The notes beneath the pieces were generated by a model. The model was not told the DNA's origin and did no database searches. It worked only from the letters and a program-made list of their open reading frames with translations. From NCBI GenBank assembly GCA_048320885.1, contig JBLWFJ010000001.1, forward strand, positions 5,697,697-5,761,696: a stretch of 64,000 bases of DNA. The letters are read 5' to 3'. This DNA is from Nannocystaceae bacterium ST9 (lineage in GTDB: Bacteria > Myxococcota_A > Polyangia > Nannocystales > Nannocystaceae). Each line of letters opens with the position of its first letter. Position 1 is the stretch's first letter. Positions 15,955-50,720 of this stretch are shown piece by piece. The position numbers and the translations under genes are program-made.

Positions 15955-15968
15955 GCAAGAGGGCCGCC

Positions 15969-27768: not shown

Positions 27769-30700
27769 ATGACCTTGCAGATCACGCTCGACGGCTACCG
27801 AACGACGCGACTGCTGCGAGGCTCGGGGAGCGCCCAGGTGTTCGAGGCGATCCGCGAGTTCGATCAGCGCAAGGTCGTCGCCAAGGTCTACGACCTCGAA
27901 GCCAACGAGGGGCTCGAAGCCCGCGTTCAGCACGAGTTCCGGCTGATCCACGGGCTGGTCGTCGAGGGCGTGGTTCGGGCGCTGGCGCTCGAGCGGGCCG
28001 GCAGCCGCCTGGTGCTGGTGCTCGACTGGTGCGAGGGCGTCAACCTCGAGGAGTACTGTGCCGGCCAGCCGCTCGCGATCGACGAGTTCTTCGCGATCGC
28101 GCTGCAGGTCACGCGGGCGCTGACCGACGTGCACGCCCAGCGGGTCATCCATCGCGATCTCAAGCCGACCAACCTGCTGATCGATCCCGAGACCAAGCGG
28201 GTGGCGATCGCCGACTTCGGGATCTCGGTCCTGCTCGAGAGCGAGCGCGAGCGGATCAACGATCCGCGCGTCGTCGAGGGCACGCTGCCTTATGTCTCAC
28301 CCGAGCAGACCGGTCGAACCGGCCGCGAGGTCGACTTTCGCAGCGACCTCTACTCGCTCGGCGTCACCTTCTACGAGCTCTTGACCGGTCGCCGACCCTT
28401 CGAGGCCGACACGCCGCTCGAGCTGATCCATGCCCACCTCGCGCGCCGGCCCGAGTCGCCGCAGTGGCTGCGGCCCGAGCTGCCCACGCCGCTCTCGGCC
28501 CTGGTCATGAAGCTGCTGGAGAAGGCGCCCGAGCGCCGCTACCAGTCGGCGGCCGGGCTGCATCAGGATCTGCTCGCGCTGCGGGCCGCGATCGTGCGCG
28601 GGGAGCCGCTCGATGGCTTCGTGCTCGCGCGCCACGACGTACCGAGCACCCTGCAGCTGCCGCATCGGCTCTACGGTCGAGTCCGCGAGACCGATCACCT
28701 GATCCGCGAGTTTCGCAAGGCGGCGCAGGGCAGCACGCGGCTGGTGGTGATCAGCGGGCCCTCGGGCATCGGCAAGACCGCGCTGCTCGAGCAGCTGGTC
28801 GAGCCAGTGCTCGGTCGGCGCGGCTACTTCGCGCGCGGTCGCTTCGAACGCGACGGCGTCGAGCAGCCCTTTACCGCGATCGTCGGTGCGTTGACCGAGC
28901 TGGCCGATCAGCTGCTGACCGAGAGCGACGAGCGGCTGGCTCGCTGGCAGGGTCTGTTGCACGAGCAGCTCGGCTCGCTGACCGCGGTGCTCAGCCGACT
29001 GGTCCCGAAGTTCGAAGCGGTCCTCGGGGCCGAGCCGGCCGCGCCCGAGATCGGCGTGTCCGAGGTTCGTCATCGCGTGTTGCTGGCCTGCCTGCGCCTG
29101 CTCGGGGCGGTCGCTCGGCCCGAGCATCCCTTGGTCCTGGCGATCGACGATCTTCAGTGGGCCGATCCCGGCAGCTGCGAGCTGCTCGAGACCGTGCTGG
29201 CCGAGCGCAACCTCGCCTTGCTGGTCGTCGGCACGCTCGGCGTGACCGACCCCGAGCTGCCGATCGTCAACTTGTTCGCGCGCCTCGATCAAGCCGAGCG
29301 CGAGCACGAGCTGCTCGAGCTCGGTCCGCTGACTCGGGCCGACGTCGCGGCGCTGGTCGCCGACGTGACCGCGCGCGGCGATCGTGACGACGAGAGCTTG
29401 GTCGATCTGCTGGTTCGCCGCGCCGGCGGCTCGCCGATGCTGACCCGCCAGCTGCTGATCCACCTCGCCGATCTCGGCCTGCTCTGGCCGAGCGCCGAGG
29501 GCTGGTCGTGGGATCCGGCGATGATCGAGACCGCCGGGATCCCCGAGGACAGCCTCGAGATGATGACGGCCAAGCTCGCCCGCTTGACCGAGCGCCCGCG
29601 CGAGCTGCTGACCATGGCCGCGGTGCTCGGCGAGCGCTTCGAGATCCAGCTGCTCGAGGAGCTGGCCGGCGCCGACATGGTCGCCGAAGGGCTCGGCGTG
29701 CTGCTCGAAGAGGGCCTGCTGACCTCGATCAGTCCGCGCCAGTTCGCGTTCAGTCACTCGCGCATCCGCGAGGCCGCCTACGTCGAGCTCGACCACACCC
29801 AGCTCCGCGAGCTCCACCTCGCGGTCGGCCAGCTCCGGCTCTCGCACCTCGGATTCGGCGATCTCGGCGAGCACATCTTCGATCTCGTCGACCACCTCGA
29901 TCGCGGCTACGGCCTGCTCCCGCTCGGTCCGACCCCCGGAGCCCGGCCGGATCGCCGGGCCGCGGTCGCGCTCGCCGACGTCGGCGACCTCGCCTACGAG
30001 CTGGCCGAGCTCAACGGCTTGGCCGGCTACAAGGCGCTCGACTCGGCCGCGGCCCACCTCGCGGTCCAGTACCTCGAGGTCGGCGTGGCCCTGCGCGAGC
30101 TGGTCTTGCCCTTCCCGGGCGTCGACGAGGTCGGCTACTCGCTGGCGCTCTCGCTCGAGCTCGGCTTGGCCCAGGCGCTCGTGCTCAGCGGCGAGATCGC
30201 GCGTGGTGACGCCTGCTTCGTCGCGTTGATGGGGCGCTCGCTGACCGAGGTCGATCGCGGCCGCGTGATCATCAAGCGCTACGAGATGCTCGCGGCCGCG
30301 GGCCGCTACGACGAGGCGATCGCGTTCGGACTCGGAGCGCTGCGCGAGCTCGGCGTCGACATCCCGCGTTCGCCGAGCAAGTTCGAGATCGGCGTGGCCT
30401 TGGTTCGAATGGCCGCGGTCTTGCGCCGGCTCGAGCTGGCCAGCCTGCACGAGCGACCCTGGGCCAAGCAGGCGCGTGCCCGCGTGACCATGGAGCTGCT
30501 CGCGGCGCTCTCGGCCACGGTCTACACCGCCGACGGCGGGCTCTTCGTGATCCTGGTCGAGCGTCAGCTCGCGACCTTCCTCGCCCACGGTCGACATCCG
30601 GTCGTGCCGATGGTGCTGGTTCAGGCCGGGTTGCTGCTCTCGGCCGGGCTCGAGCTGCGCGAGTTCGGGCGCGCGGTCGGTCAAGTCGGCGAGCTGATGG

Positions 30701-33381: not shown

Positions 33382-33478
33382 CTCGATCGAGCCATCGCTC
33401 GCGTGCGAGTCGCGGCCGAGCGTTCGCGCGCGATGATCCGCCCGGCCCGCTCGGATAGGATGAGAGGGCGCCCGCCCG

Positions 33479-36400
33479 ATGCCTCTGACCCTCGATGGAT
33501 ATCGGCTCTTGCGGAGCTTGCGAGCCACTCGCAACGCGCAGGTGATGCTGGCCGAGCGCGAGTCCGACGGCTTGCCGGTCGTCGTCAAGGCCTACGTCAT
33601 CGAAGGCCACCGGGGCATCGAGGCCCGCGTCGAGCACGAGTTCGCGTTGATCCGAGCGCTCGACTGCAAGGGCGTGGTTCGGGCGCTCGCGCTCGAGCGA
33701 TCCGGTGATCGCATGGTGCTGATCCTCGAGCGCCACGCCGGGGTCGACCTCGCACGCCACACCGAGGGCCGGCCGATGGCGATCCCCGAGTTCCTGCGCG
33801 TCGCTCGGGCGATCGCCGAGATCCTCGCCGAGGTCCACGTCCACTGGGTGATCCATCGCGACATCAAGCCGTCGAACATCCTGATCGACCCGGCGACCGG
33901 CGAGGTCGCGCTGGCCGACTTCGGGATCTCGGTGCTGCTCGAGAGCGAGCGGGCTCATCTCCACGACCCCGCGTTGATCGAGGGCACGCTGCCCTACGTC
34001 GCACCCGAGCAGACCGGCCGGACCGGGCACGAGGTCGACTTTCGCAGCGACCTCTACTCGCTCGGCGTCACGTTCTACGAGCTGCTCACCGGTCGGCGGC
34101 CCTTCGTCGCGAGCTCGCCGCTCGAGCTGATCCACGCCCACCTCGCGCGCCGACCCGACCCACCGGTCTGGCTGCGCCCCGAGCTGCCCAAGCCGCTCTC
34201 GGATCTCGTGCTCGAGCTGCTCGAGAAGGCGCCCGAGCGGCGCTACCAATCGGCGCGCGGGCTCGCGGCCGACCTCGCCGCGATCGCCGAGATGCTCGCG
34301 CGCGGCGAGCCGCTCGACGACTTCGAACTCGGGCGCTTCGACGTACCCAGCTCGATCCACCTGCCGCATCAGCTCTATGGCCGCGAGCGCGAGCTCGAGC
34401 TGCTCGGCGACGAATTTCGGGCGGCCGCGCTCGGTGGCCCGCGCCTGGTCGTGCTGCGTGGTCCGGCCGGGATCGGCAAGACCGCGCTGCTCGGCGAGCT
34501 GATCGAGCCGGTGCTCGGTCGCCGCGGCCACCTGATCCGCGGCAAGTTCGACGAGGGCGCCAAGCAGCCGCTCGAGGCGATCGTGCAAGCGCTCTCGGGG
34601 CTCGCCGATCAGCTGCTGACCAGCAGCGACGCCGAGCTGGCCGGTTGGCGTGCGCGTCTGCTCGCCTCGCTCGGGACCCTCGCCGAGGTCGTCCGCGAGC
34701 TGGTCCCGAAGTTCGACACCCTGCTCGGCGAGCTCGAGCCGGTCGCCGTCGAGTCCGAGCTCGGCGCGGCCGGCCTGCGCAACCGCATGTGGCTGGCGAT
34801 CGCCCGCGTGCTGGCGGTCGTGGCCCGGCCCGAGCATCCGCTGGTGCTCGCGCTCGACGATCTGCAGTGGGCGGACGTCGCCAGCGGCGAGCTCTTGGCC
34901 GGGTTGCTCACCGAGCCGGCTGCGGCGCTGTTGATCGTCGGGACCGCCCGGGCCGCGAGCGAGGTCGGCATCGTCGAAGAAGAGGTGCTCGCCGAGCTGC
35001 TCGAGCTGTGTCGAATCAACGCGGTTCCGACCCGGACCATCGAGATCGGCCCGCTCGGCAGCGAGTCGATGGCCGCGATGCTCTCGGTCATGCTCGGGCG
35101 CGAGCCGGGCGAGGTTCGCTCGCTGGTCGAGGTGCTCGGCCGCAAGACCGGCAACAACCCCTTCTTCGTCCAGCAGTTCCTGCTTCACCTGGTCGAGCGC
35201 GGGCTGCTCTGGGTCGAGGCGCAGGGCTGGTCGTGGGATCCGGCCGAGATCGAGGCCGCCGAGCTGCCGGCCGACAGCCTGGCGATGATGAGCACCAAGC
35301 TCGACGCGCTGCCCGACGAGCTGCGCGAGCTGGCGATGAGCGCGAGCGTGCTCGGGGTTCGCTTCGACGCCGAGTTGCTCGAGGCGGTGCTCGGCCGACC
35401 GATCGGCGCTCAGCTCCAGAAGCTGGCCGACGAGGGCTTGATCGCGCCGCGTGGTCGCGACTGGGTGTTCGGCCACGATCGGATCCGCGAGGCCGCCTAC
35501 GCGCACCTGAACGGCAAGCGCCGTCGCGAGCTGCACCTCGCGATCGGCAAGACCCTGCTCGGGCGGCAGGCCGAGCGCCCCGGCGTCGAGCCGGCCTGGC
35601 TCGAGATCGCCGAGCAGCTCGATCGCGGCCACGGCCTGGTCCCGCTGGTCGGCGAGGTCGACTCGCTCGAGGTTCGCGAGGCCCTGGCCAGCGTGTCGGC
35701 GGTCGCGATGCGGATCGACCAGGCCGAGCTGCACGTGCTGGCCGAGCTCAACGGTCGGGCCGGACTGCGGGCGCTGGCGACCGGAGCCCCGCGCAGTGCG
35801 GTCGGCCTGCTGCGCTTGGCCTCGGCGTTGCGCGAGGTCCCGGCCGGCGAATCATTCCAGATGCAGGCCAAGCTCCTGCCCGAGCACGCGCTGGCCGTCG
35901 AGATCGAGATCGGCCTGGGCGAGGCGCTGAGCCTGGTCGGCGAGTATGCGCTCGCCGATCGCTGCTATCGCGACCTGCTCGGGCGCCAGGACTCGCTCAC
36001 GCCGTCCGAGCTCGCGACCGTGGCGATCAAGCGCAACTGGCTCTTGCTGCTCAGCGGCGAGGGCGAGCAAGCGCTGCGCTCGGGCTGCGAGGTCCTGCGT
36101 CGGCTCGGGCTGGCGATCCCGGCTCGGATCACGCCGATGGCCGCCGCTCGGGCGGTGCTCGGCCTGCTCGTCGAGCTGCGCGCGAGTGGGCGCGAGCGCA
36201 TGCGTGGGCTGGCGCCGGTCGAGGATCCACGCGCGAGCGCGGCGATGGACGCCGGCCTGATGTTCGCGACCTCGGCCTACATCCACAGCCCCGAGCTCTT
36301 CGTGATCCTGATCGAGCGCCAGGTCGATCACCTGCTGCGCTACGGCGGGCACACCAGCGCGCCGCTGGTCCTGGCCAACGCCGGGCTGATCCTCGCCCAC

Positions 36401-39088
36401 GGGCTCGGTCGGCGCGACCAGGGCCGCGCGTTGATCGAGCTCGCCCGCGAGCTCGCCGAGCGAGGCGGCTGCCGGCTCGATCATCGTCGCCAGCTCAGCG
36501 AGCAGGTGTTCTTGCAGTGGGAGCGGCCCTATCGCGAGTGCCTGGTCCCGCTGCGCCGGGCGGCCGAGGCCGCGCTCGAGGCCGGCGACATCGAGGGCGC
36601 CGACTACTGCGAGTCGCTCCGGATCGGGCTCTCGCTGATCTCGGGCGTGCACCTGCGCCAGCTCGAGCAGCAGGTCGAGGCGATGCTGCGCCAGCGCGAG
36701 CAGCGAGGCACCGCCGATCTCGGCGGCAGCGGCAAGTCGCAGCGCGATCTGTGTCGGCTCCTGCTCTACGGGCCGGTCCCCGAGCCCGACGAGCTCGACC
36801 CGCTCAATTCGTGGGCGCTCGGCGAGTTCGGGCTCGGCGAGATCAAGCAGCTCGACGCGCGCCTGCTCGGCGCGCTCGCGTTGGTCGTGTTCGGCCGCCA
36901 TCGCTCGGCCCTGCAGATCCTCGACGAGATCGCCGGGCCGATCGAGCGGACCCTGCGAGGGCTCTGGTACGTGCCGCTGGTCGCGATCCTGCGTGGACTC
37001 GCGTCGACGATCGTCGCTCACGATGCGCCCGCCCACGCGCGTCGTCGACTGCTCCGCCAGGCTCGCGGCGATCGGCGTCGGCTCCGGCGTTGGGCCCGAC
37101 AAGGCGGCAACTGTGCGATGCAGGCCGAGCTGCTGAACGCCGAGCTGCTCGCGGTCGCGGGCGAGAGTGCGCGCGCGACCGCGAGCTACGTGCGAGCGAG
37201 CGAGCTGGCCGAGGCTCAGCGCCTGCCGATGTTCGAAGCGCTGATCGCCGAGCGAATGGCCGCGCTGGCCATGCGCCACGGGTTCGGGACGTTCATGCAC
37301 GGACCGCTGCTGCGGGCGCGCGAGCGCTATCAGCATTGGGGCGCCTTCGCCAAGGTCGCCGAGCTCGATCGCCAGTGGCCGATGCTGGTCGAGGCGACGC
37401 GGACCCACGAGGGCGAGGACTCGGTCACCGGCGCCTCGTCGCCGAGCGAGGTCGACGCGAGCGGGCGGACCATCGACATGGACACGCTGTTCAAGACCTC
37501 GCAGGCGATCGCCGCCGACATTCGACTCGACGAGGTCGTCGCGCGCGTGTTGGCGATCGCGGTCGAGAACGCCGGCGCCGAGCGAGCGGTGCTGATCCTG
37601 CCCAGCGACGAAGGCCTGGTCGTGGCCGCCGAATCCGACGCCGAGGCGCTCGCCAGTCGGCGGACCAACCTGCCGCTGAGCGAGGCGGGCTCGCAGGTGC
37701 CGGCCTCGTTGCTGCACTGGGTCGAGCGGACCCGCGAGTCGGTGGTCTTGGCCGAGGCCAGCGCCGACCTCCGCTTCGCCGCCGATCCCTACATGCGCGC
37801 CCGCATGGTCCGCTCGGTGCTCTGCCTGCCGATCGTCAAGCACAGCCGGCTGGTCGGGCTGCTCTACCTCGAGAACAAGCTCAGCGCGGGGACCTTCACC
37901 GACAAACGGCTCAAGGTGCTCGGGCTGCTGATGAGCCAAGCCGCCAGCGCGCTGGAGAACGCCCGTCTCTACGAGGCGCTGCGAACCAGCGAGGTTCGCT
38001 GGCGATCGCTGGTCGAGCGGCTGCCCGACGTGGTCGCGGTCGTCGATCGAGTCGGGCGGATCGAGTTCATCAACCACATGCAGGGCGAGCGCCAGGAGGT
38101 GCTCGGGACCTCGCTGCTCGAGCTGCTCGGCGAGGCCCAGCGCGGGCGAGCGGGCGAGCGGCTGCGCGAGACCCTCGGTGGCCGGGTCGGCGAGCCGATC
38201 GAGGTCGAGGCCGCGTTCGCGGGCCGCTCGCGGCGTTGGTGGTCGACGCGCTTCGCTCCGATCGCCGTCGACGGCCGGGTCGAGCGCGTGATCGTGGTCG
38301 CGACCGACGTGACCGATCGCCGGCAGGCCGAGCGCGACAAGCAGCAGCTCGAGGCGCAACTGCGCCAACAGCAGAAGCTCGAGTCGATCGGTACGCTGGC
38401 GAGCGGCGTGGCCCACGAGATCAACAATCCGATCCAGGGCATCATGAACTACGCCGAGCTGATCGCGGCCTCGTCGGCCGCCGACGCCGAGATCCGCGAG
38501 TTCGCCGACGAGATCGAGCACGAGACCCGCCGGGTCGCGGCGATCGTCCGCAACCTGCTGGCCTTCTCCCGCCAGGAGAGCGAGAAGTCGACGGTTGCGA
38601 CCACGCTGAGCGAGATCGTCGAAGGCACGCTCTCGCTGGTCCGCGCGGTGTTGCGCAAGGATCAGATCGTGCTGCGCGTGGAGCTCGCTGACGATCTCCC
38701 CGAGCTCGAGTGTCGACCGCAGCAAATTCAGCAAGTCATCATGAACCTGGTCACCAACGCTCGCGACGCACTCAACGCCCGCTGGCCGAACTATCACGAC
38801 GACAAACGCATCGATGTCGTCGCTCACGCTTTCGAGCGCGCCGGCGTGCGGTGGGTTCGACTGAGTGTGGCGGATCGGGGCGGGGGCATTCCGAGCGAGG
38901 TGGTGCCGCGAATCTTCGATCCCTTCTTCACCACCAAAGGTCGCGATCAGGGCACCGGGCTGGGTCTGGCGGTCAGCCACGGCATCGTCAGCGATCACGG
39001 TGGAGACCTGCGGCTCGACAACGAGTACGGCGTGGGTGCGACGTTCCACGTCGAGTTGCCGTGCCGGCGCATTCGAGCTGCGGCATGA
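33479..39088 (+). CDS. Giant Ser/Thr kinase - STAND ATPase - TPR - GAF - PAS - histidine kinase sensor, paralog 2
   Basis: Same domain order and ~1869 aa. Colinear with paralog 1 throughout, with roughly 50-70% identity by eye and highest similarity in the kinase, GAF and HK regions. Confidence 0.85.
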   Translation: MPLTLDGYRLLRSLRATRNAQVMLAERESDGLPVVVKAYVIEGHRGIEARVEHEFALIRALDCKGVVRALALERSGDRMVLILERHAGVDLARHTEGRPMAIPEFLRVARAIAEILAEVHVHWVIHRDIKPSNILIDPATGEVALADFGISVLLESERAHLHDPALIEGTLPYVAPEQTGRTGHEVDFRSDLYSLGVTFYELLTGRRPFVASSPLELIHAHLARRPDPPVWLRPELPKPLSDLVLELLEKAPERRYQSARGLAADLAAIAEMLARGEPLDDFELGRFDVPSSIHLPHQLYGRERELELLGDEFRAAALGGPRLVVLRGPAGIGKTALLGELIEPVLGRRGHLIRGKFDEGAKQPLEAIVQALSGLADQLLTSSDAELAGWRARLLASLGTLAEVVRELVPKFDTLLGELEPVAVESELGAAGLRNRMWLAIARVLAVVARPEHPLVLALDDLQWADVASGELLAGLLTEPAAALLIVGTARAASEVGIVEEEVLAELLELCRINAVPTRTIEIGPLGSESMAAMLSVMLGREPGEVRSLVEVLGRKTGNNPFFVQQFLLHLVERGLLWVEAQGWSWDPAEIEAAELPADSLAMMSTKLDALPDELRELAMSASVLGVRFDAELLEAVLGRPIGAQLQKLADEGLIAPRGRDWVFGHDRIREAAYAHLNGKRRRELHLAIGKTLLGRQAERPGVEPAWLEIAEQLDRGHGLVPLVGEVDSLEVREALASVSAVAMRIDQAELHVLAELNGRAGLRALATGAPRSAVGLLRLASALREVPAGESFQMQAKLLPEHALAVEIEIGLGEALSLVGEYALADRCYRDLLGRQDSLTPSELATVAIKRNWLLLLSGEGEQALRSGCEVLRRLGLAIPARITPMAAARAVLGLLVELRASGRERMRGLAPVEDPRASAAMDAGLMFATSAYIHSPELFVILIERQVDHLLRYGGHTSAPLVLANAGLILAHGLGRRDQGRALIELARELAERGGCRLDHRRQLSEQVFLQWERPYRECLVPLRRAAEAALEAGDIEGADYCESLRIGLSLISGVHLRQLEQQVEAMLRQREQRGTADLGGSGKSQRDLCRLLLYGPVPEPDELDPLNSWALGEFGLGEIKQLDARLLGALALVVFGRHRSALQILDEIAGPIERTLRGLWYVPLVAILRGLASTIVAHDAPAHARRRLLRQARGDRRRLRRWARQGGNCAMQAELLNAELLAVAGESARATASYVRASELAEAQRLPMFEALIAERMAALAMRHGFGTFMHGPLLRARERYQHWGAFAKVAELDRQWPMLVEATRTHEGEDSVTGASSPSEVDASGRTIDMDTLFKTSQAIAADIRLDEVVARVLAIAVENAGAERAVLILPSDEGLVVAAESDAEALASRRTNLPLSEAGSQVPASLLHWVERTRESVVLAEASADLRFAADPYMRARMVRSVLCLPIVKHSRLVGLLYLENKLSAGTFTDKRLKVLGLLMSQAASALENARLYEALRTSEVRWRSLVERLPDVVAVVDRVGRIEFINHMQGERQEVLGTSLLELLGEAQRGRAGERLRETLGGRVGEPIEVEAAFAGRSRRWWSTRFAPIAVDGRVERVIVVATDVTDRRQAERDKQQLEAQLRQQQKLESIGTLASGVAHEINNPIQGIMNYAELIAASSAADAEIREFADEIEHETRRVAAIVRNLLAFSRQESEKSTVATTLSEIVEGTLSLVRAVLRKDQIVLRVELADDLPELECRPQQIQQVIMNLVTNARDALNARWPNYHDDKRIDVVAHAFERAGVRWVRLSVADRGGGIPSEVVPRIFDPFFTTKGRDQGTGLGLAVSHGIVSDHGGDLRLDNEYGVGATFHVELPCRRIRAAA

Positions 39089-39206
39089 CGCTACGCTCGC
39101 GCGTCGGCGCATGGTCGGATTCACGCTGCGGGGTCGGCTCAGCGGGTACTGGACGTCGTTTGTTGCGTGGCGGTGATCCAATTGCCGCTCTAGAATCGCC
39201 GAGCCG

Positions 39207-42200
39207 ATGTCGCTCACCCTCGATGGCTATCGCCTCGCACGGCTGCTGCAGCAGTCGTCGACCACGCGAGTGTACGTGGGCGAGCGCGAGAGCGACGGGC
39301 TGCCGATCGTGGCCAAGGCCTACGCGATCGCGTTGCGGCAGGGCCTCGAGGCCCGGGTCGAGCACGAGTTCTCGCTGATTCGTGCGCTCGAGGGTCGCGG
39401 CGTCGTTCGAGCGCTGGCGCTCGAGCGGGCCGGCGACCAGCTGGTCTTGGTGCTCGAGCGACACGCGGGGGTCGATCTCGCGGCCTACTGCGAAGGCCGA
39501 CCGATGGCGGTCGGCGAGTTCCTGCGCGTCGCTCGACGGGTGACCGAGACGCTCGCGCTGGTCCATGGGCAGTCGGTCATCCATCGCGACATCAAGCCCG
39601 CCAACATCCTGATCGATCCGAGCACCGGCGAGGTCGCGCTGGCCGACTTCGGGATCTCGGTCCTGCTGGAGAGCGAGCGCTCGCAGATCCACGATCCCGA
39701 GATCATCGAAGGCACGCTGCCCTACGTCGCGCCCGAGCAGACCGGTCGAACCGGGCGCGAGGTCGACTTTCGCAGCGATCTCTACTCGCTCGGGGTGACC
39801 TGCTACGAGCTGCTGACCGGGCGCCGGCCCTTCGTGGCCAGCTCGCCGCTCGAGCTGATCCACGCCCACCTCGCCCGGCTGCCCGAGCCGCCCGACCAGC
39901 TGCGACCCGAGCTGCCCAGGCCACTCTCGCGGCTGGTCCTCAAGCTGCTCGAGAAGGCGCCCGAGCGGCGCTACCAGTCCGCGCGTGGGCTCGCGGCCGA
40001 CCTCGCGACCATCGCCACCGCGCTCGAGCGCGGCGAGCCACTCGACGAGTTCGAACTCGGCGCGCAAGACGTGGCCAGCACGATCCGCCTGCCGCACCAG
40101 CTCTACGGTCGCGAGCGCGAGGTCGACGAGCTGATCGGCGAGTTTCGCCAGGCTTGCCTGGGCACCCCGCGGCTGGTCGTGCTGCGCGGGCCCGCTGGCA
40201 TCGGCAAGACCGCGCTGCTCGGCGAGCTGGTCGAGCCGGTGCTCGGACGGCGCGGTCACCTGATTCGCGGGCAGTTCGACGCCGCTCAGCAGCCGCTCGC
40301 CGCGATCGTGCACGCGCTCGAGGGTCTGGCCGATCAGCTGCTGACCGGCAGCGACGTCGAGCTTCGCCGATGGCGACGCGAGCTCGGCTCCGAGCTCGGC
40401 GCGCTCGCGGGCGTGCTCTGCAACCTGGTCGGCAAGTTCTCGGCGGTGCTCGGCGAGCAGCGGGTCCGCGAGCCCGAGCTCGGCGCGTCCGAGGGCCTCG
40501 GCGCCGCCGAGCACCGCAATCGACTCTGGCTGGCGATCTCGCGGCTGCTGGTCCGCATGGCCAAGCCCGAGCACCCGCTGGTGATCGCGCTCGACGATCT
40601 CCACTGGGCCGATCCGGCCAGCGGCGAGCTCCTGGCCAGCTTGTTGGGCGAGCGCGGCGCGGCGCTCCTGATCGTCGGGACCGCCCGCGACAGCGACCCC
40701 AGCTTGCCGGCGCCCGAGGGCCTCGGCGACGCGCTCGGCGAGCTGAGCGATCAGCTGCGCGCCGCCAACACGCCGGTCCGCGAGATCGTGCTCGCGCCGC
40801 TGACCGGCGCCGCGATGACCTCGATGCTGGCGGTCACGCTCGGGCGCGAGCCGAGCGAGGTCGCGTCGCTGGTCGAGGTGCTCGGTCGCAAGACCGGCAA
40901 CAACCCCTTCTTCGTCCGCCAGTTCCTGCTTCACCTGGTCGAGCGCGGGCTGCTCTGGGTCGAGCTCAGTGGCTGGCAGTGGGACAGCGCGAAGATCGAG
41001 GCCGCCGAGCTGCCGGCCGACAGCTTGGCGATGATGACCGCCAAGTTGGCCGGGCTGCCCGAGCAGCCGCGCGAGCTGGCCAAGGCCGCGAGCGTGCTGA
41101 GCAGTCGCTTCGACACCGACGTGCTCGAGCACGTGCTCGGCCGCAGCCCGATCACCACCGAGCTCCATCGCCTGGTCGACGAGGGGCTGATCGCCCCGCA
41201 GGGCGAGGGCTGGGTGTTCGGTCACGAGCGGATTCGCGAGGCCGCCTACGCGATGTCGAAGCCCGAGCGGCGCCGCGCCCTGCACCTCGCCGCCGGCCGA
41301 GCGCTGCTGGCCCGCCTGCGCGCCAACCCGGACGGGCAGTCGGGCGAGCTGCTGCTCGAGATCGCCGAGCAGCTCGATCGCGGTCACGGGCTCGCGCCGC
41401 TGCGTGGCGAGGTCGACAGCTTCGAAGTCCGCGAGGCGCTGGTCAGCCCTTCGATGGTCGCGACTCGGCTGGTCGGTTCGGAGCTCGACGACCTCGCCGA
41501 GCTCAACGGTCGAGCCGGGCTGCGGGCGCTGACGACCGGCGCTCCGCGGGCGGCCGTCCGTCTGCTCAAGCTCGCGTCGGCCCTGCGCGGCGATCTGCCT
41601 GCCGACGACGCGCCCGGCAACGCGCGCATGCTCGCGGTCGAGGTCGACATTCGGCTCGGCGAGGCGCTCGGGTTGATCGGCGAGTACGTCGAGGCCGACG
41701 AGGTGTTCTCGCGGCTCTTCATGTACGAGGCCGAGCTCGACGCGCGCGAGCTCGCGATGCTGGCGATCAAACGGCACTGGTTGCTGATGCTCAGCGGCGA
41801 GTCGCGGCGCGGGCTCGAGTTCGGCTGCCTGGTCCTGCGTCGGCTCGGGTTCGGCTTGCCCGAGGCGATCGGCAAGCTCGCCGCGCTGCGCTCGTTGGTC
41901 ACCCTGGTCGTCCGCCTGCGTCCGCGCGGGCTCGCACGGCTGCGCGAGCGGGCCCCGATGAACGATCGGCGCGCGGCCGCGGCGATGGACGTGTGCGTCT
42001 CGCTCGGGACCACGGCCTACCTGGTCAGCCCCGAGGTGTTCGTGGTCATGGTCGAGCGCCAGGTCGATCACATGCTGCGCAACGGCGACCACCCGGCCGC
42101 GGCGATGGTCATCTCGCAGGCCGCGTTGCTGATGGCCAGCGGGCTCGGTCGGCGCGCGCTGGCCGGCGAGCTGCTCGGGTTGGCCGAGGCCCTGAGCGAT

Positions 42201-44855
42201 CGAGCGGCCCGCGGCCCCTACGAACACCGCCGCCGGTTGATCGCGCAGATCGTCCAGCAGTGGTCGGTGCCCTACCGCGAGTGTCTGCCGCGTCTGCGCG
42301 AGGTCACCGAGCTCGCGCTCGAAGCCGGCGATCTCGAGAGCGCCGACTACTGCGAGTCGATCCGGATCTCGCTCTCGTTTCACTCGGGCACCCACCTGCG
42401 CCTGCTCGAGCAGCAAGTCGAGCTCTTGCTGCGTCGCCGCGAGCAGTGGGGGACCGGCGACCTCGCGCCCGGCGGAGGCTCGCTGCGCGACCTGTGTCGG
42501 CTCTTGATGTACGGGCCCGCCCCGGAGGTCGGCGAGGTCGATCCACTCAACTCGTGGGCAGTCGGCGACTACGGGCTCGCCGAGGTCAAGGTGCTCGACG
42601 CCAAGCAGCTCGGCGCGCTCTTGTTGGTGCTCTTCGAACGTCATCGTGAGGCGCTCGGCGTGATCGAAGAGATCCGTCGACCGATCGAGCAGGGCCTGCG
42701 CGGCATGTGGTACATCCCGCTGATCCTGACGCTGCATGGTCTGGCCGCCGCGGGCGTGCTAGCGAGTGCCGAGCCGAGCGAGCGTCGACGGCTGCGGCGC
42801 GTGCTCGAGCGCTGCCAGGCTCGGTTGGCGCGCTGGACCAAGCAGGGCGGCAACTTCGCCGTGCAGGCCGAGCTGCTGCGCGGCGAGCTGCTGGCGATCG
42901 ACGGCTCGCTCGAGCAGGCTGCCCAGGCCTACGGCAACGCGGCCGAGTACGCGTCGGCCCAGCGCGTGCCGATGTACGAGGCGCTGGCCAGCGAGCGGCT
43001 GGCCGAGCTGGCCGAGCGGCGCGGGTTCTCGAGCTTCGTCCGCGGCCCACTCGAGCGCGCGCGCGAGCGCTATCGGCATTGGGGGGCGTTCGCCAAGGTC
43101 ACCGAGCTCGAGCGTCGCTGGCCGCAGCTGCGCGAGGACTCGCCCCGACCGCGGCACGACAGCGAAGAGCTGACCGTCTCGGGCATCCGGGTCAACACCA
43201 ACAGCTCGAAGACCAGCGAGGCGATGGACGTCGCGTCGTTGCTGAAGACCTCGCAGGCGATCGCCGCCGACATTCGGCTCGAGGACGTCGTCGATCGTCT
43301 GATGGTCATCGCGCTCGAGAACGCCGGCGCCGAGCGAGCGGCGCTGGTCCTGCCCGGCGAGGCCGGGCTGACGCTGGCGGCCGAGTGCAGCGCCGACGCG
43401 CCGACCTCGACCTTCCTCGCCGACCCGCAGCCGCTCTCGGAGGTCTCCGATCGCGTGCCGGCCTCGTTGCTGCACTGGGTCGAGCGGACCCGCGAGTCGG
43501 TCGTGCTCGCCGAGCTCGGGGCCGACGTCCGCTTCGCCAACGATCCCTACGTTCGCCACAGCGGCGCGCGCTCGGTGATCAGCCTGCCGATCGTCAAGCA
43601 CAGCCGGCTGGTCGGCGTGCTCTACCTCGAGAACAAGCTGAGCGCGGGGGCGTTCACCGACGAGCGGCTCGAGGTGCTCGGTCTGCTGATGGGCCAGGCC
43701 GCCAGCGCGCTGGAGAACGCCCGGCTCTACGAGGCGCTGCGGACCAGCGAGGTCCGCTGGCGCTCGCTGGTCGAGCGGCTGCCCGACGTGGTCGCGCTGA
43801 TCGATCGCAGCGGCTTCGTCGAGTTCATCAACCACCTCGAGGACGGCCTGATCGGCCCGCAGATCCTCGGCGCCCGGCTGGTCGACGTGATCGCGGTCGA
43901 GCAGCGCGAGCTGGTCCGCGAGAGCCTCGAGAGCGCGCTCGCGGGCAAGCAGGCCGAGCTGGCCGAGATCGAGACCGCGCCGACCAGCACGCAGGGCTCG
44001 CGCTGGTGGTCGGCTCGCTTCGCGCCGATCGGCGTCGACGGGCGAGTCGAGCGGGTGATCCTGGTCGCGACCGAGGTCACCGAGCGGCGCGCGGCCGAGC
44101 GCGAGAAGCAGCACCTCGAGGCCAAGCTCCGCCAGCAGCAGCGGCTCGAGTCGATCGGCACGCTGGCCAGCGGCGTGGCCCACGAGATCAACAACCCGAT
44201 CCAGGGCATCATGAACTACGCCGAGCTGATCGCCGGCTCACCGGTCGCCGACGCCGAGATCCGCGAGTTCGCCGACGAGATCGAGCACGAGACCCGCCGG
44301 GTCGCGACGATCGTCCGCAACCTGCTGGCGTTCTCGCGGCAGGAGAGCGAGAAGTCGATGGTCGCGACCACGATCTCGTCGATCGTCGACGGCACGCTCT
44401 CGCTGATCCACGCCGTGCTGCGCAAGGATCAGATCCGCTTGCGCATCGAGCTGCCCGAGGGTCTGCCGGCCGTGCACTGTCGACCCCAGCAGATCCAGCA
44501 GGTGATCATGAACCTGGTCACCAACGCCCGCGACGCGCTCAACGCCCGCTGGCCCGGCTACCACGACGACAAGCGGATGGAGATCATCGGCCAGGCCTTC
44601 GAGCGCGGCGACGCGACCTGGGTGCGGATCAGCGTGGCCGACTTCGGCGGTGGGATCGCCAGCGAGGTCGTACCGCGGATCTTCGATCCCTTCTTCACGA
44701 CCAAGGGCCGCGATCAGGGCACCGGGCTGGGCCTCGCGGTCAGCCACGGCATCGTGGCCGAGCACGGCGGCGAGCTGCGGCTCGACAACCGGCTCGGCTC
44801 CGGCGCCGTGTTTCACGTCGAGCTGCCCTGCGAGCGCGCGTGGGCAGCCGCCTGA
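39207..44855 (+). CDS. Giant Ser/Thr kinase - STAND ATPase - TPR - GAF - PAS - histidine kinase sensor, paralog 3
   Basis: Same architecture, 1882 aa. Most similar to paralog 2. For example, both share the HK linker EIREFADEIEHETRRVA, which is absent from paralog 1. Confidence 0.85.
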   Translation: MSLTLDGYRLARLLQQSSTTRVYVGERESDGLPIVAKAYAIALRQGLEARVEHEFSLIRALEGRGVVRALALERAGDQLVLVLERHAGVDLAAYCEGRPMAVGEFLRVARRVTETLALVHGQSVIHRDIKPANILIDPSTGEVALADFGISVLLESERSQIHDPEIIEGTLPYVAPEQTGRTGREVDFRSDLYSLGVTCYELLTGRRPFVASSPLELIHAHLARLPEPPDQLRPELPRPLSRLVLKLLEKAPERRYQSARGLAADLATIATALERGEPLDEFELGAQDVASTIRLPHQLYGREREVDELIGEFRQACLGTPRLVVLRGPAGIGKTALLGELVEPVLGRRGHLIRGQFDAAQQPLAAIVHALEGLADQLLTGSDVELRRWRRELGSELGALAGVLCNLVGKFSAVLGEQRVREPELGASEGLGAAEHRNRLWLAISRLLVRMAKPEHPLVIALDDLHWADPASGELLASLLGERGAALLIVGTARDSDPSLPAPEGLGDALGELSDQLRAANTPVREIVLAPLTGAAMTSMLAVTLGREPSEVASLVEVLGRKTGNNPFFVRQFLLHLVERGLLWVELSGWQWDSAKIEAAELPADSLAMMTAKLAGLPEQPRELAKAASVLSSRFDTDVLEHVLGRSPITTELHRLVDEGLIAPQGEGWVFGHERIREAAYAMSKPERRRALHLAAGRALLARLRANPDGQSGELLLEIAEQLDRGHGLAPLRGEVDSFEVREALVSPSMVATRLVGSELDDLAELNGRAGLRALTTGAPRAAVRLLKLASALRGDLPADDAPGNARMLAVEVDIRLGEALGLIGEYVEADEVFSRLFMYEAELDARELAMLAIKRHWLLMLSGESRRGLEFGCLVLRRLGFGLPEAIGKLAALRSLVTLVVRLRPRGLARLRERAPMNDRRAAAAMDVCVSLGTTAYLVSPEVFVVMVERQVDHMLRNGDHPAAAMVISQAALLMASGLGRRALAGELLGLAEALSDRAARGPYEHRRRLIAQIVQQWSVPYRECLPRLREVTELALEAGDLESADYCESIRISLSFHSGTHLRLLEQQVELLLRRREQWGTGDLAPGGGSLRDLCRLLMYGPAPEVGEVDPLNSWAVGDYGLAEVKVLDAKQLGALLLVLFERHREALGVIEEIRRPIEQGLRGMWYIPLILTLHGLAAAGVLASAEPSERRRLRRVLERCQARLARWTKQGGNFAVQAELLRGELLAIDGSLEQAAQAYGNAAEYASAQRVPMYEALASERLAELAERRGFSSFVRGPLERARERYRHWGAFAKVTELERRWPQLREDSPRPRHDSEELTVSGIRVNTNSSKTSEAMDVASLLKTSQAIAADIRLEDVVDRLMVIALENAGAERAALVLPGEAGLTLAAECSADAPTSTFLADPQPLSEVSDRVPASLLHWVERTRESVVLAELGADVRFANDPYVRHSGARSVISLPIVKHSRLVGVLYLENKLSAGAFTDERLEVLGLLMGQAASALENARLYEALRTSEVRWRSLVERLPDVVALIDRSGFVEFINHLEDGLIGPQILGARLVDVIAVEQRELVRESLESALAGKQAELAEIETAPTSTQGSRWWSARFAPIGVDGRVERVILVATEVTERRAAEREKQHLEAKLRQQQRLESIGTLASGVAHEINNPIQGIMNYAELIAGSPVADAEIREFADEIEHETRRVATIVRNLLAFSRQESEKSMVATTISSIVDGTLSLIHAVLRKDQIRLRIELPEGLPAVHCRPQQIQQVIMNLVTNARDALNARWPGYHDDKRMEIIGQAFERGDATWVRISVADFGGGIASEVVPRIFDPFFTTKGRDQGTGLGLAVSHGIVAEHGGELRLDNRLGSGAVFHVELPCERAWAAA

Positions 44856-44906: not shown

Positions 44907-45611
44907 ATGGCCATGATGGATCGACGCGGACTCTCGGCAGAACCCACGGCGATCGGGCTCGCGCTCGCGGCGATCGGCTGCACGCGCGAGCCCGGCTTCA
45001 CGCTCGACGACGAAGCCGGCAGCGAGACGATCGGGGCCGAGAGCGAGAGCACGAGCGAGAGCACGAGCGGCGAAGATGGGCCCAACGACATCCCCTTCGA
45101 ACTCGTGTCGGCGGGCCTGAACGCGACCGGCCAGTTCGTCGCGCTGCGCTTCAGCGAGCCGGTCGGTCCGGTCACCGCCCTCGATCCCCGCGACTTTCGG
45201 ATCAGCCACGCGCTGCCGACCTCGCTCTGCAACAACGAGGGCTGCGTCGATCAGACCACGTACTGGGATCCCAACTTCTACGTCGCGTACTACCTTGGCG
45301 GCTACCCGCCGCCCGACCCGGAGCTGCGCTTCGAGACCATGCTGATCACGGCGGGCAACCAAGCGACCGACGTGTTCCTGCGCTTCGGGTCGCCGCTCGA
45401 TCCGGCGCTCTGCCAATACGTCGACTACATGGGTGGGTACGAGAGCCTGTTCGTGCACTACTCGCCCGGCGAGATTCCGCTGACCAGCGCCGACGGCGAA
45501 GCGCTCGCGCCGATCGGATCACAGTGGGTCGAGCAGGACTCGCCGGTCGCGAGCGTCGACGGGCTCTTTCCCGAGCTCGATCCGAAGATTGCGATCCCTT
45601 GCAGCCTCTGA
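44907..45611 (+). CDS. Hypothetical lipoprotein
   Basis: Signal peptide with lipobox (LALAAIGC), an acidic Ser/Glu linker, then a ~170-aa domain. Confidence 0.55.
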   Translation: MAMMDRRGLSAEPTAIGLALAAIGCTREPGFTLDDEAGSETIGAESESTSESTSGEDGPNDIPFELVSAGLNATGQFVALRFSEPVGPVTALDPRDFRISHALPTSLCNNEGCVDQTTYWDPNFYVAYYLGGYPPPDPELRFETMLITAGNQATDVFLRFGSPLDPALCQYVDYMGGYESLFVHYSPGEIPLTSADGEALAPIGSQWVEQDSPVASVDGLFPELDPKIAIPCSL

Positions 45612-49619: not shown

Positions 49620-50720
49620 TTACGCAGGCTTGCGTACGCGCGGACGCATCGCCCCGCCGATCAGCGCGAGCCAGGCCAGCGACCAGGCCGGTGGTGTCGT
49701 TCGTTGGTGGGAACACGCACAGTCGTCGATCGGCTCGCGAGCCTCGGGATCTTCGGGCTCGCCCGAATCTTCCGAGTCGTCGGGTGGGTCGCCGCCGCAG
49801 GGACCGAGGCAGCGTTCGAAGATCACCGACTCCGAGTGGTGGGCGACGAACTCCCGATCGAGCGCGTCGATCAGTCGCACCCGCAAGAGGCCCTCGACTT
49901 GGACGTTGGCACCCTCGGCCGCCGACAGGACGGCGCCCTTCGGGGTCGCGGTCAGGCGCCCGTCCTGCTCGATCGTCGCGCGGTCGAGCTCGGTCCACAC
50001 GAGCTCCGGCGAGAGCGGGGCCCACTCGAAGATCGCGGTCGCGGGCATCCGCGCGTCGACGCAGAGCTCGATCGGGTTGGCCTGGTCCGACCACCACCAC
50101 GCGCCCGTCTCGACGATCTGTGCGGCGGGTAGGTCCTGCGCGGGGTCGTCGGGATCGTCGACGATCTTCACGAAGCTCGGCTGCCCGCGCCAGAGGTTCA
50201 GCGCGGGTTCGAAGGTGTAGCCGGCGACCTGCCACACGCCGATCGGGACCTCGGCGAGCGCCCAGTCGACGCCCTGGTCGGCGGCCGCGAAGCTGATCGG
50301 CCGGCGCTGATCGTCGGCCGTGATCCGCACGAAGCAGCCGGCCCAGTCCGCGCTGGTGTCGAGCACGGCCGAGCTCGCCACGCTGCCCGTCGCGATCAGC
50401 CCGGCCTGCTCGGCGCGCGCGACATCGTCGAGGCTGATCCAGTTGGGCAGCAGATCGGTCATCGCTCGTTGCCGACACAGCGCGAAGAACTGGTGCGTGC
50501 GACTGTCGGCCAGCTCGTCGGGCCCGAGCTGCGTGTCTTCGAAGGGGATGGCGTACTCGACGTGCAAGCTGGTCTCGACCCCGCGATCGACGACCACGCC
50601 GCAGGGCGAGTCGGGCCAGAGCACGGGCGTGCGCGGGTGAGCCTCGTTGCCCGCACGCGCGTCGCTCGGCGCGAGCAGCCCGAGCGCGAGCAGTGGAGCC
50701 AGGCCTCGCAGCCTTCGCAC
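49620..50720 (-). CDS. Secreted protein with a MYXO-CTERM-like C-terminal sorting signal
   Basis: Signal peptide MRRLRGLAPLLALGLLAPSDARA. C-terminus DDCACSHQRTTPPAWSLAWLALIGGAMRPRVRKPA, a Cys motif followed by a hydrophobic helix and a basic tail, as in MYXO-CTERM. Confidence 0.65.
   Translation of the reverse strand: MRRLRGLAPLLALGLLAPSDARAGNEAHPRTPVLWPDSPCGVVVDRGVETSLHVEYAIPFEDTQLGPDELADSRTHQFFALCRQRAMTDLLPNWISLDDVARAEQAGLIATGSVASSAVLDTSADWAGCFVRITADDQRRPISFAAADQGVDWALAEVPIGVWQVAGYTFEPALNLWRGQPSFVKIVDDPDDPAQDLPAAQIVETGAWWWSDQANPIELCVDARMPATAIFEWAPLSPELVWTELDRATIEQDGRLTATPKGAVLSAAEGANVQVEGLLRVRLIDALDREFVAHHSESVIFERCLGPCGGDPPDDSEDSGEPEDPEAREPIDDCACSHQRTTPPAWSLAWLALIGGAMRPRVRKPA

Follow-up and report, generated by a model that had tools for sequence, protein, structure and literature searches.

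The window is a 64-kb (64,000-nucleotide) stretch of the genome of Nannocystaceae bacterium ST9, a marine-type myxobacterium. It holds three head-to-tail open reading frames on the plus strand (P1, P2 and P3), at the positions given by an earlier note made from the sequence alone, which described three paralogues with identical domain order, gaps of ~100–120 bp and no interposed gene. That description holds: the spacers measure 97 and 118 bp, GC3-based gene calling places no gene between P1, P2 and P3, and in all three proteins Pfam identifies one and the same series of domains, Pkinase, AAA_16, GAF, PAS_4, HisKA and HATPase_c, every domain exceeding its curated cut-off. The features are as follows (genes from reading frames, P1 also from its translation; domains from Pfam).

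26035 to ~27570, minus strand: CobA/HemD gene, upstream of P1
27571..27768, no strand assigned: divergent intergenic region between CobA/HemD and P1, presumed array promoter region
27769..33381, plus strand: P1, 1870 aa; Ser/Thr kinase (STK), STAND NOD, helical solenoid, GAF, PAS, HisKA, HATPase_c
27826-28566, plus strand: P1 Pkinase, aa 20-266
28666-29223, plus strand: P1 AAA_16, aa 300-485
31768-32202, plus strand: P1 GAF, aa 1334-1478
32263-32580, plus strand: P1 PAS_4, aa 1499-1604
32644-32835, plus strand: P1 HisKA, aa 1626-1689
32971-33318, plus strand: P1 HATPase_c, aa 1735-1850
33382..33478, plus strand: P1-P2 spacer, 97 bp, little conserved between species
33479..39088, plus strand: P2, 1869 aa, same architecture as P1
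33536-34252, plus strand: P2 Pkinase, aa 20-258
34370-34933, plus strand: P2 AAA_16, aa 298-485
37526-37954, plus strand: P2 GAF, aa 1350-1492
38012-38326, plus strand: P2 PAS_4, aa 1512-1616
38390-38584, plus strand: P2 HisKA, aa 1638-1702
38717-39064, plus strand: P2 HATPase_c, aa 1747-1862
39089..39206, plus strand: P2-P3 spacer, 118 bp, with two conserved blocks at about 39115-39133 and 39165-39197
39207..44855, plus strand: P3, 1882 aa, same architecture as P1
39258-39980, plus strand: P3 Pkinase, aa 18-258
40098-40670, plus strand: P3 AAA_16, aa 298-488
43278-43712, plus strand: P3 GAF, aa 1358-1502
43770-44093, plus strand: P3 PAS_4, aa 1522-1629
44157-44351, plus strand: P3 HisKA, aa 1651-1715
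44484-44834, plus strand: P3 HATPase_c, aa 1760-1876

The upstream extension of the first reading frame (from 26230) is non-coding, and P1 is sensibly taken to start with the ATG at 27769 because CobA/HemD occupies the minus strand across this extension. An NCBI protein from Nannocystaceae bacterium ST9 matches P2 at 100% identity. Scans of the whole window for tRNA genes and Rfam families found nothing.

The divergent CobA/HemD-P1 arrangement recurs at the related loci L002 and L003 and in Enhygromyxa salina (L007), and the region between the two genes is presumed to contain the promoter of the array. Aligned with L002 and L003, the P1-P2 spacer has a mean column identity of 55%, and a consensus scan detected no terminator-like site in it. 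In the P2-P3 spacer, the block GCGTGGCGGTGATCCAATTGCCGCTCTAGAATC is invariant but for one position in the three-species alignment, and the second conserved block includes TAGAAT ~13 nt upstream of the P3 ATG. This element, which lacks a match in a sigma-70 consensus scan, is a candidate internal promoter or operator for P3; a promoter/terminator consensus scan across the array likewise returned nothing. Its conservation suggests that P3 may be at least partly separately regulated.

Catalytic cores and the STAND-like middle region

The Pfam matches cover Pkinase (E 8e-39 to 8e-34 across P1–P3), AAA_16 (E 3e-31 to 3e-33, aa ~298-488) and the GAF domain between the two kinases (E 1e-15 to 1e-16). 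All three proteins carry a VAIK-type Lys, HRD, DFG, A/SPE, GRxRE, Walker A, Walker B and GxP motifs, together with complete histidine kinase H, N, G1, F and G2 boxes (HEINNP, NLVTNA, D(R/F)GGG, FDPF and GTGLGL, of the class I HisKA type), and the catalytic motifs are at least 90% conserved across 78 homologues. The closest solved structure is PknB for the kinase domain (E 1e-31) and LvrB for the transmitter (E 1e-50), followed by ZraS and FixL. Both kinase cores and the STAND-like ATPase proposed in the earlier note are borne out by the Pfam searches (Pkinase, HisKA and HATPase_c above curated cut-offs in each protein), by the intact catalytic motifs, the Gly-rich loop excepted, and by the AlphaFold fold described below.

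No hydrophobic segment in P1–P3 suggests a membrane span (maximum KD19 1.75–1.84). There is no Response_reg match in P1–P3, which end 7–21 residues past HATPase_c, or in any scanned gene of the 64-kb window, and no response regulator is consistently adjacent to family members in relatives; the search for a cognate regulator advised by the earlier note thus came back empty at these places. P1–P3 are orphan kinases, and their partner response regulator must be encoded elsewhere, outside the window.

The Ser/Thr kinase motifs (VVAK/VVVK/IVAK, HEF, HRD(L/I)KPxN, DFG and (S/A)PE) leave the catalytic Lys, the αC Glu and HRDxKxxN intact in P1–P3, the pattern expected of an active enzyme; a regular expression finds HRD in 88% and DFG in 90% of 120 close homologues, and residue by residue these motifs reach at least 90% conservation among the 78 aligned homologues. 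The Gly-rich loop, by contrast with these motifs, has degenerated: P2 (RATRNAQV) and P3 (QQSSTTRV) have no Gly at this position, P1 alone keeps a partial motif (GSGSAQ, two of three Gly), and canonical GxGxxG occurs in 0 of the 120 close homologues and in 2% of diverse representatives. Ser/Thr kinase activity of P1–P3 is therefore not assured. The N-lobe (aa 1-76), moreover, fails to align to PknB with phmmer and is less conserved than the C-lobe (50% versus 64%). On this evidence the domain could be a pseudokinase or a regulatory/docking module that would sense nucleotide or mediate dimerisation, leaving the histidine kinase as the sole enzymatic output. Given the otherwise intact catalytic residues we consider this unlikely; in fungal CHK1, too, deletion of the kinase domain has been examined, treating it as a functional module (PMC9069115).

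About 850 aa in the middle of each protein have no Pfam match, and P2 aa 285-1335 was modelled with AlphaFold2 (pLDDT 90.8, pTM 0.88):

34331..37483, plus strand: P2 aa 285-1335, predicted STAND NOD (P-loop, helical and winged-helix parts) followed by a ~600-aa TPR-like alpha-solenoid (AlphaFold2, Foldseek)

A PDB sequence search with the middle region gave no match. By structure, the best Foldseek match in the PDB is the STAND+TPR protein 6mfv_A (E 1.6e-9), with further matches to Apaf-1, MalT, Cdc6/ORC, plant NLRs and TPR subunits of the APC/C. As reportedly set out by Leipe, Koonin and Aravind in 2004, STAND NTPases are marked by an hhGRExE-type motif that precedes Walker A and by two acidic residues in Walker B. 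P2 contains GRERE, Walker A GPAGIGKT, Walker B VLALDD and GNNP, and across P1–P3 the signature reads LYGRERE or LYGRVRE at aa ~299-307, GPxGIGKT and hhhhDD; G47, G49 and K50 are invariant, and D176 and D177 are conserved in at least 90% of 79 sequences. GNNP/GGSP corresponds to the GxP motif, and the model has helical, β-hairpin winged-helix and solenoid parts. As modelled, the middle region is a STAND NTPase followed by a TPR-like solenoid. The latter term is the best one for the paired-helix solenoid of the model, which Foldseek matches to the APC/C, Ski3, Ctr9 and IFT-A TPR proteins at low TM-scores (0.15–0.33); Pfam finds no significant TPR family in aa ~600-1330 of P1–P3 even at E ≤ 10, the best being TPR_21 (E 0.05).

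Family membership, age and copy number

P1–P3 are members of the HstK-type “dual protein kinase” family, already named by PGAP (NCBI's annotation pipeline). The best 120 database matches are full length, with 91–100% query coverage and the same Pfam set, and several homologues, among them P0032 and P0083, carry the PGAP dual-kinase product name. P2 is collinear with a cyanobacterial “trifunctional” kinase of Leptolyngbya (WP_096735611.1; 29% identity over 1575 columns, E 2e-179). The presence of at least one GAF domain between two kinases is the defining feature of HstK-type dual kinases (PMC2176072). The STAND-solenoid module is matched by 6,320 cluster representatives (50%-identity clusters, E ≤ 1e-30), many of them PknK-like proteins of ~1,260 aa that end after the solenoid, and one plasmid homologue is annotated PknK. 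The ST9 genome itself encodes at least 11 family paralogues, at least 8 of them beyond the array. The architecture, “unusual” according to the earlier note, is thus common as well as named; the array establishes no new class of system, and its practical value is modest. The GenBank label of the three proteins, only “protein kinase domain-containing protein”, can be improved to membership of a dual-kinase (STK-STAND-GAF-HK) family that is strongly expanded in Nannocystaceae. A literature search found no experimental work on P1–P3 or any myxobacterial family member, nor did it turn up a paper dealing with strain ST9 or the PGAP product name.

P2 and P3 share 67% amino acid and 75% nucleotide identity and are therefore the closer pair, in agreement with the earlier note; P1 shares 52% (P2) and 53% (P3) amino acid identity, and 66% nucleotide identity with each. 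In the tree, P2 and P3 are sisters that group with the dispersed paralogues P0011, P0009 and P0010, and P1 groups with ST9 paralogue P0060 and an Enhygromyxa group, i.e. in another subfamily. An exclusive P1+P2+P3 clade appears in 0 of 200 bootstraps, and each copy forms its own orthologue clade in 200 of 200. The 1:1 orthologues in other Nannocystaceae are 78–84% identical at the amino acid level, the order MmeI-like RM / CobA-HemD / array / double-kinase gene is conserved at L002 and L003/L004, and orthologue dN/dS values of 0.24–0.35 indicate purifying selection. P1–P3 are ancient, conserved paralogues, and the array is not a closed triplication produced by successive duplications, as the earlier note had proposed. 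The EIREFADEIEHETRRVA stretch, which was taken as evidence for these duplications, sits in the DHp (the HisKA helices for dimerisation and histidine phosphotransfer), is nearly invariant family-wide and recurs in every P2 and P3 orthologue, varying by single F/Y or A/T exchanges. The block is ancestral and says little about the order of duplications.

Synonymous codon identity is ~0.73 for paralogues and orthologues alike, at ~90% GC3, so dS is saturated and the paralogue dN/dS values (0.59–0.78) are inflated. The dN/dS of the three copies that the earlier note envisaged is therefore not informative, and the orthologue values alone were used. The check for gene-conversion tracts that it advised yielded two weak hints, neither convincing: P1/P3 aa ~1446-1524 in a maximal-segment permutation of synonymous codons (best p 0.0055 among 9 tests), and P2 aa 1631-1705 in a paralogue-versus-orthologue sliding comparison (P2/P3 93% versus 86–92% for orthologues).

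The earlier note had also raised recombination-prone copy-number variation and assembly collapse or expansion. A young repeat or artefact whose copy number varies between strains would account for that slight local P2/P3 excess and for the metagenome scaffold L003, which has four genes through an exact 5,804-bp duplication with ends in the most conserved kinase C-lobe segment. However, the two L003 copies match at 100.0%, and another contig from this MAG (metagenome-assembled genome) breaks at the repeat, which points to an assembly loop; the duplicate has no counterpart in the sister assembly L004, from the same population, in which the third gene is intact. We accordingly do not read L003 as copy-number variation. 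Three-gene arrays occur in the same synteny in both L002 and L004, the ST9 copies share 66–75% nucleotide identity, with longest exact matches of 42–61 nt, and the separate orthologue clades and the permutation test also speak against such a repeat. A young or artefactual repeat is thus very improbable.

Inputs, outputs and proposed function

Sequence identity is distributed unevenly along the proteins (ranges are for array pairs; means over 11 ST9 paralogues in brackets). It is highest in the DHp at 78–92% (78%), the CA (the catalytic ATP-binding HATPase_c domain) at 71–82% (65%) and the STK C-lobe at 72–84% (64%), and lower in PAS at 45–52% (37%) and the solenoid at 36–56% (31%). With output modules near-identical and sensor modules diverged, the array is best read as a differently tuned sensor bank, and the sub-functionalised sensing suggested by the earlier note is a reasonable inference. 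On balance, P1–P3 are probably three ancient dual-kinase paralogues acting as differently tuned sensors that feed the same or very similar partners, as opposed to redundant copies or an unstable repeat.

Each protein is predicted to be a soluble cytoplasmic signalling protein with a STAND nucleotide switch bearing a long TPR-like solenoid, a GAF and a PAS domain as input or regulatory modules, and with two catalytic outputs, an N-terminal Hanks-type Ser/Thr kinase and a C-terminal class-I histidine kinase transmitter without a receiver. When a ligand or protein binds at the solenoid, GAF or PAS, the STAND module would change over between an ADP-closed and an ATP-open/oligomeric state, and this state would determine how active the two kinases are; the histidine kinase would then phosphorylate a response regulator encoded outside the 64-kb window. 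We infer shared response-regulator specificity from the DHp conservation, although the high DHp identity could be explained by dimerisation constraints instead of partner sharing.

It is conceivable, if improbable, that P1–P3, perhaps with the at least 8 other paralogues, co-assemble through DHp heterodimers and mixed STAND oligomers into a combinatorial “signalosome”. If so, Ser/Thr and His-Asp outputs would compute a joint function of several inputs, and the assembly would parallel, in a prokaryote, the paired or networked NLRs, with a connection to two phosphorylation systems at once.

STAND+TPR proteins often serve as sensors in defence, 1.7 kb upstream of the array there is an MmeI-like Type IIG RM gene (PADLOC E 3e-267) in the conserved RM-CobA/HemD-array synteny, and an AAA_15/AAA_21/DUF3696 ATPase occupies a low-GC patch at 15.6–17.3 kb, but an anti-phage module of Avs-like STAND sensors with a kinase effector in a defence island is very improbable: PADLOC matches P1–P3 only in the generic kinase domain (PD-T4-6, mad6 and MkoA, aa ~5-275) and with no defence NTPase or sensor model covering the NTPase or solenoid, the family numbers at least 11 paralogues in the genome and has GAF-PAS-HK transmitters of the kind usual in housekeeping signalling, the surroundings of other members are unrelated and non-defence, and the orthologues show stable inheritance and purifying selection.

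With its invariant output modules and diverged sensor modules, the conserved array offers a clean natural system for studying how STAND switches control two kinase chemistries, and allows one to ask whether a single response regulator receives the signals of many sensors.

Comparison with known systems

The transmitters of P1–P3 resemble those of Leptospira LvrB and of the NtrB-AtoS-ZraS type in their core (LvrB, E 1e-50) and HEINNP H-box. LvrB itself, at 382 aa, is a receiver-bearing hybrid kinase, and the likeness is limited to the last ~260 residues.

The middle region resembles STAND NTPases such as P. horikoshii PH0952 (6mfv), MalT, Apaf-1/NLRs and the PknK-type kinase-STAND fusions of M. 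tuberculosis, which likewise have a GRExE-like motif, Walker A, Walker B with DD and a GxP motif, with helical and winged-helix domains and then a long alpha-solenoid. In contrast to these, the STAND module of P1–P3 is sandwiched between two kinases, with GAF-PAS-HK following, and there is no DNA-binding or death-fold effector.

Fungal group X histidine kinases (S. pombe Mak2/Mak3, C. albicans Chk1) are likewise giant proteins in which a Ser/Thr kinase-like N-terminus is joined to GAF, PAS/PAC and the core of a histidine kinase (PMC5383687), and Mak2 and Mak3 are paralogues with partial redundancy. The Pfam family PF25503, named after the CHK1 TPR region, has no direct match in P1–P3, but matches the segment of a cyanobacterial homologue that aligns with the P2 solenoid. 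Homology with group X over the whole N-terminal half is a lead only. The group X proteins are hybrids with a C-terminal receiver that feeds an HPt relay; P1–P3 lack a receiver and are not members.

P1–P3 share the architecture of the cyanobacterial HstK “dual protein kinases”, known since 2001 (PMC2176072, PMC1262709), including cbSTKIII / HstK (Alr2258) and the Pkn pair Alr0709/Alr0710 of Anabaena PCC 7120. These are proteins of ~1,800 aa with an N-terminal Ser/Thr kinase, a central AAA_16 ATPase, a long helical region, GAF and a C-terminal HisKA and HATPase_c without a receiver, and they form multi-copy families per genome; Alr0709 and Alr0710 are recent duplicates, adjacent and co-transcribed (PMC2176072). 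Dual-kinase regulation in Anabaena involves iron and NtcA. The ST9 locus differs from the Anabaena pair in being myxobacterial (Nannocystaceae) and in having three genes instead of two. All copies of the ST9 array have PAS_4 between GAF and HisKA, as opposed to only some cyanobacterial members, and they are much older than the Alr0709/Alr0710 pair, with P1 in a different subfamily from P2 and P3.

Architecture, fold and catalytic motifs

The dual-kinase genes of the array (P1, P2 and P3, numbered in gene order), taken from ORF listing and translation, and the features needed to assess them are:

27769-33381, plus strand, P1, 1870 aa
33479-39088, plus strand, P2, 1869 aa
39207-44855, plus strand, P3, 1882 aa
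26035 to ~27570, minus strand, CobA/HemD fusion gene (Pfam TP_methylase and HEM4)
27800-27870, 33510-33580 and 39240-39310, kinase subdomain I of P1-P3, canonical GxGxxG loop missing

Since the GC content of the window is ~70%, long spurious ORFs are plentiful; a GC3-based filter of the array region retained the P1, P2 and P3 frames and none in between. The filter, the ORF listing and the translation thus confirm the three uninterrupted ORFs described in an earlier note, with spacers of 97 bp (P1-P2) and 118 bp (P2-P3). The P1 ORF is open 5′ as far as 26230, but the extra stretch is antisense to the minus-strand CobA/HemD gene, making ATG 27769, the start chosen in that note, the sensible one.

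P1, P2 and P3 share the domain order Pkinase, AAA_16, GAF, PAS_4, HisKA and HATPase_c, each Pfam match being well above its curated cut-off, in agreement with the identical order and the two kinase cores previously read from the sequence. No NCBIfam equivalog reached its cut-off for P1-P3, for which the matches were partial and domain-level. The ~850 residues separating AAA_16 from GAF gave no Pfam or PDB sequence match. A model of P2 residues 285-1335, built with an alignment of 78 homologues (pLDDT 90.8, pTM 0.88), comprises a P-loop α/β domain, a helical domain, β-hairpin winged-helix elements and ~600 residues of paired helices. The top Foldseek match to this model in the PDB is a STAND and TPR protein (6mfv_A, E 1.6e-9), followed by Apaf-1, MalT, Cdc6/ORC, plant NLRs and TPR subunits of APC/C. 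STAND signatures in the sequence (LYGRERE 5′ of Walker A, GPxGIGKT, hhhhDD and GNNP) agree with the fold. The earlier proposal of a STAND/NB-ARC-like ATPase plus helical/TPR region consequently stands at the level of fold, but not as sequence-level TPR repeats, none being detectable by Pfam in the middle region.

The Ser/Thr kinase motifs (Lys, Glu, HRDxKxxN, DFG and A/SPE) and the H, N, G1, F and G2 boxes of the transmitter are intact in P1-P3; in the alignment of 78 homologues, conservation of each is at least 90%. Among solved structures, the kinase comes closest to PknB, a match that starts only at residue 77, and the transmitter to LvrB, ZraS and FixL. The exception is the Gly-rich loop, which is degenerate (GSGSAQ in P1, without Gly in P2 and P3): none of the 120 close homologues has a canonical GxGxxG, and only 2% of the diverse representatives do, with Lys, HRD and DFG kept. 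On this ground a pseudokinase N-terminus is possible, though unlikely. The N-lobe of the dual-kinase family may bind nucleotide atypically. P1-P3 are cytoplasmic, with no membrane-span-like segment, and orphan, with no receiver domain of their own or in any scanned gene of the 64-kb window.

Ancestry and copy number of the array

P2 and P3 are 67% identical at the amino acid level (75% nt), P1 and P2 52% (66% nt), and P1 and P3 53% (66% nt); the longest exact matches among the copies are 42-61 nt. A bootstrapped NJ tree of 36 family members places each copy in a clade with its own orthologues (200/200 bootstraps, 78-84% aa identity). P2 and P3 are sisters in it (200/200), which matches the closer pair of the earlier note. 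Its tandem triplication by successive duplications is contradicted by the tree, an exclusive P1, P2 and P3 clade being recovered in 0/200 bootstraps. P2 and P3 group with P0011, an ST9 paralogue on a 2.24-Mb contig, and the homologues P0009 and P0010 (200/200), and P1 groups with a second ST9 paralogue (P0060) and an Enhygromyxa group (200/200). The phylogeny indicates that the array brings together members of two subfamilies in an old juxtaposition, with one local duplication that is also old, rather than being a recent triplication. P0009 and P0010, the closest outgroups of P2/P3, are themselves a tandem pair on a different Nannocystaceae metagenome contig (L006, 8001-19541), so the tandem arrangement recurs in the family. 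Orthologue dN/dS values of 0.24-0.35 for all three copies imply that each has been maintained; paralogue dS is saturated through GC3 bias.

The stretch EIREFADEIEHETRRVA, previously taken as a P2/P3 linker reflecting successive duplications, is located in the dimerisation/phosphotransfer helices (DHp) of HisKA. Every P2 and P3 orthologue carries it, apart from single F/Y or A/T substitutions, and P0009 and P0011 have a nearly identical stretch, a distribution which indicates that it is ancestral.

The related assemblies have in common an MmeI-like restriction-modification (RM) gene, minus-strand CobA/HemD and the three-gene array. In Enhygromyxa salina too, a divergent CobA/HemD precedes the P1-like gene, directly 3′ of which the contig ends. 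One scaffold (L003) apparently carries four genes, the third and fourth being chimeras from an exact 5,804-bp direct duplication (about 4825-10629 and 16285-22089). In L004, a sister assembly from the same population, the array has its usual three genes with the third intact, and the same-MAG contig JAMHUH010000098 breaks at a shared conserved kinase C-lobe segment. Most probably an assembly loop produced the four-gene version, which at best represents a rare unequal-crossover variant. For ST9, the recombination-prone copy number or assembly collapse or expansion raised earlier is implausible because the copies are only 66-75% identical in nucleotides. Gene-conversion scans of P1-P3, suggested as a check, gave only weak signals. 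We regard an unstable repeat or artefact as highly improbable.

Neighbouring genes and spacers

The following genes flank the array:

15633-17336, plus strand, ORF with AAA_15/AAA_21 (AbiEii-like) and DUF3696, inside a GC dip
22636-26028, plus strand, MmeI-like Type IIG/IIL RM enzyme (PADLOC REase_MTase_IIG, E 3e-267; Pfam MmeI_N/hel/Mtase/TRD)
44907-45611, plus strand, 234-aa ORF with coding-like GC3, immediately 3′ of P3
45618-48503, minus strand, double-kinase gene, 961 aa, two complete tandem Pkinase domains (Pfam E 3.6e-92, two stretches)

L002 and L003 also have the RM gene upstream of the array. A defence function for the array beside this gene is very unlikely, as the PADLOC hits are confined to the generic kinase domain and the dual-kinase family is a large housekeeping-type expansion. 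The 15633-17336 ORF, in a dip at 16-18 kb (GC 0.63 versus ~0.70), may be an OLD/Abi-like ATPase gained by horizontal transfer, i.e. a small defence islet. The double-kinase gene downstream of the array has a syntenic counterpart of 974 aa in L002 (the L003, L004 and L005 scaffolds end before its position), and its product may be functionally linked to P1-P3. The 234-aa ORF has no Pfam or PADLOC match, nor is it conserved at the corresponding position of L002. Two further plus-strand genes encode domains typical of eukaryotes, lysyl oxidase (50641-52584, E 1.8e-29) and thaumatin-family (61199-62359, E 1.8e-12).

No terminator-like sites were found between the array genes. The P1-P2 spacer is unconserved, whereas the P2-P3 spacer (39089-39206) contains two blocks that ST9, L002 and L003 conserve (about 39115-39133 and 39165-39197); the block GCGTGGCGGTGATCCAATTGCCGCTCTAGAATC, which includes TAGAAT, has a single variable base in the three species. 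P3 may thus have its own regulation, the block being a possible internal promoter or operator of near-leaderless geometry.

Module conservation and relation to known dual kinases

In a database search, P2 was 100% identical to a protein that Nannocystaceae bacterium ST9 encodes on a 6.98-Mb contig, and more than 6,487 proteins matched it at E≤1e-20. Each of the best 120 spans 91-100% of P2 and has its domain set; their sources are Nannocystaceae (Enhygromyxa, Plesiocystis, Pseudenhygromyxa) and metagenomes. ST9 itself accounts for at least 11 of these 120, and several bear PGAP's own product name for the family. Among plasmids, tblastn detected homologues along the full length (30-35% identity) in Rhizobium, Bradyrhizobium, Sinorhizobium, Microvirga, Paraburkholderia, Cupriavidus and Azospirillum, together with matches in Nostoc records; many of the plasmid matches bear the same product name. 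A 1,787-aa Leptolyngbya boryana plasmid member (Pkinase, AAA_16, TPR_CHK1, GAF, HATPase_c) is collinear with P2 (29% identity over 1,575 columns, E 2e-179). With the STAND-solenoid module alone, 6,320 representatives of clusters built at 50% identity matched (E≤1e-30). Most of the best of them are 1,250-2,300-aa proteins in which the module starts at residue ~285, directly behind a kinase domain.

Amino acid identity by module (range over array pairs; mean over 11 ST9 paralogues)
DHp: 78-92%; 78%
CA (catalytic ATP-binding HATPase_c domain): 71-82%; 65%
Kinase C-lobe: 72-84%; 64%
GAF: 62-69%; 53%
NOD (nucleotide-binding oligomerisation domain of the STAND unit): 43-67%; 42%
PAS: 45-52%; 37%
Solenoid: 36-56%; 31%

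Specificity-rewiring work has established that paralogous histidine kinases normally diverge in DHp, insulating their pathways. The almost invariant DHp observed here suggests that P1-P3 and their paralogues use shared or very similar response regulators and possibly heterodimerise, and the diverged solenoid and PAS modules suggest different inputs. In the mechanism we propose, solenoid, GAF and PAS inputs would govern a STAND nucleotide switch gating both kinases, such that P1-P3 would be differently tuned sensors converging on common outputs.

The domain calls and the observation in the earlier note were good, but P1-P3 belong, as ordinary members, to a large family that already has a name and a published description, in a lineage known for expanded kinomes, and such hybrids are not unusual. 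In the cyanobacterial "dual protein kinases" (cbSTKIII), known since HstK (Alr2258), a Ser/Thr kinase forms the N-terminus and a histidine kinase the C-terminus, with at least one GAF between them (PMC2176072). Anabaena has more than a dozen, of which the adjacent, co-transcribed, iron-responsive and NtcA-controlled Alr0709 and Alr0710 are regarded as a recent duplication (PMC2176072, PMC1262709, PMC3898017). Fungal Mak2/Mak3 and Chk1 likewise join GAF, PAS/PAC and histidine kinase modules to a Ser/Thr kinase domain, but, in contrast to P1-P3, carry a receiver (PMC5383687, PMC9069115).
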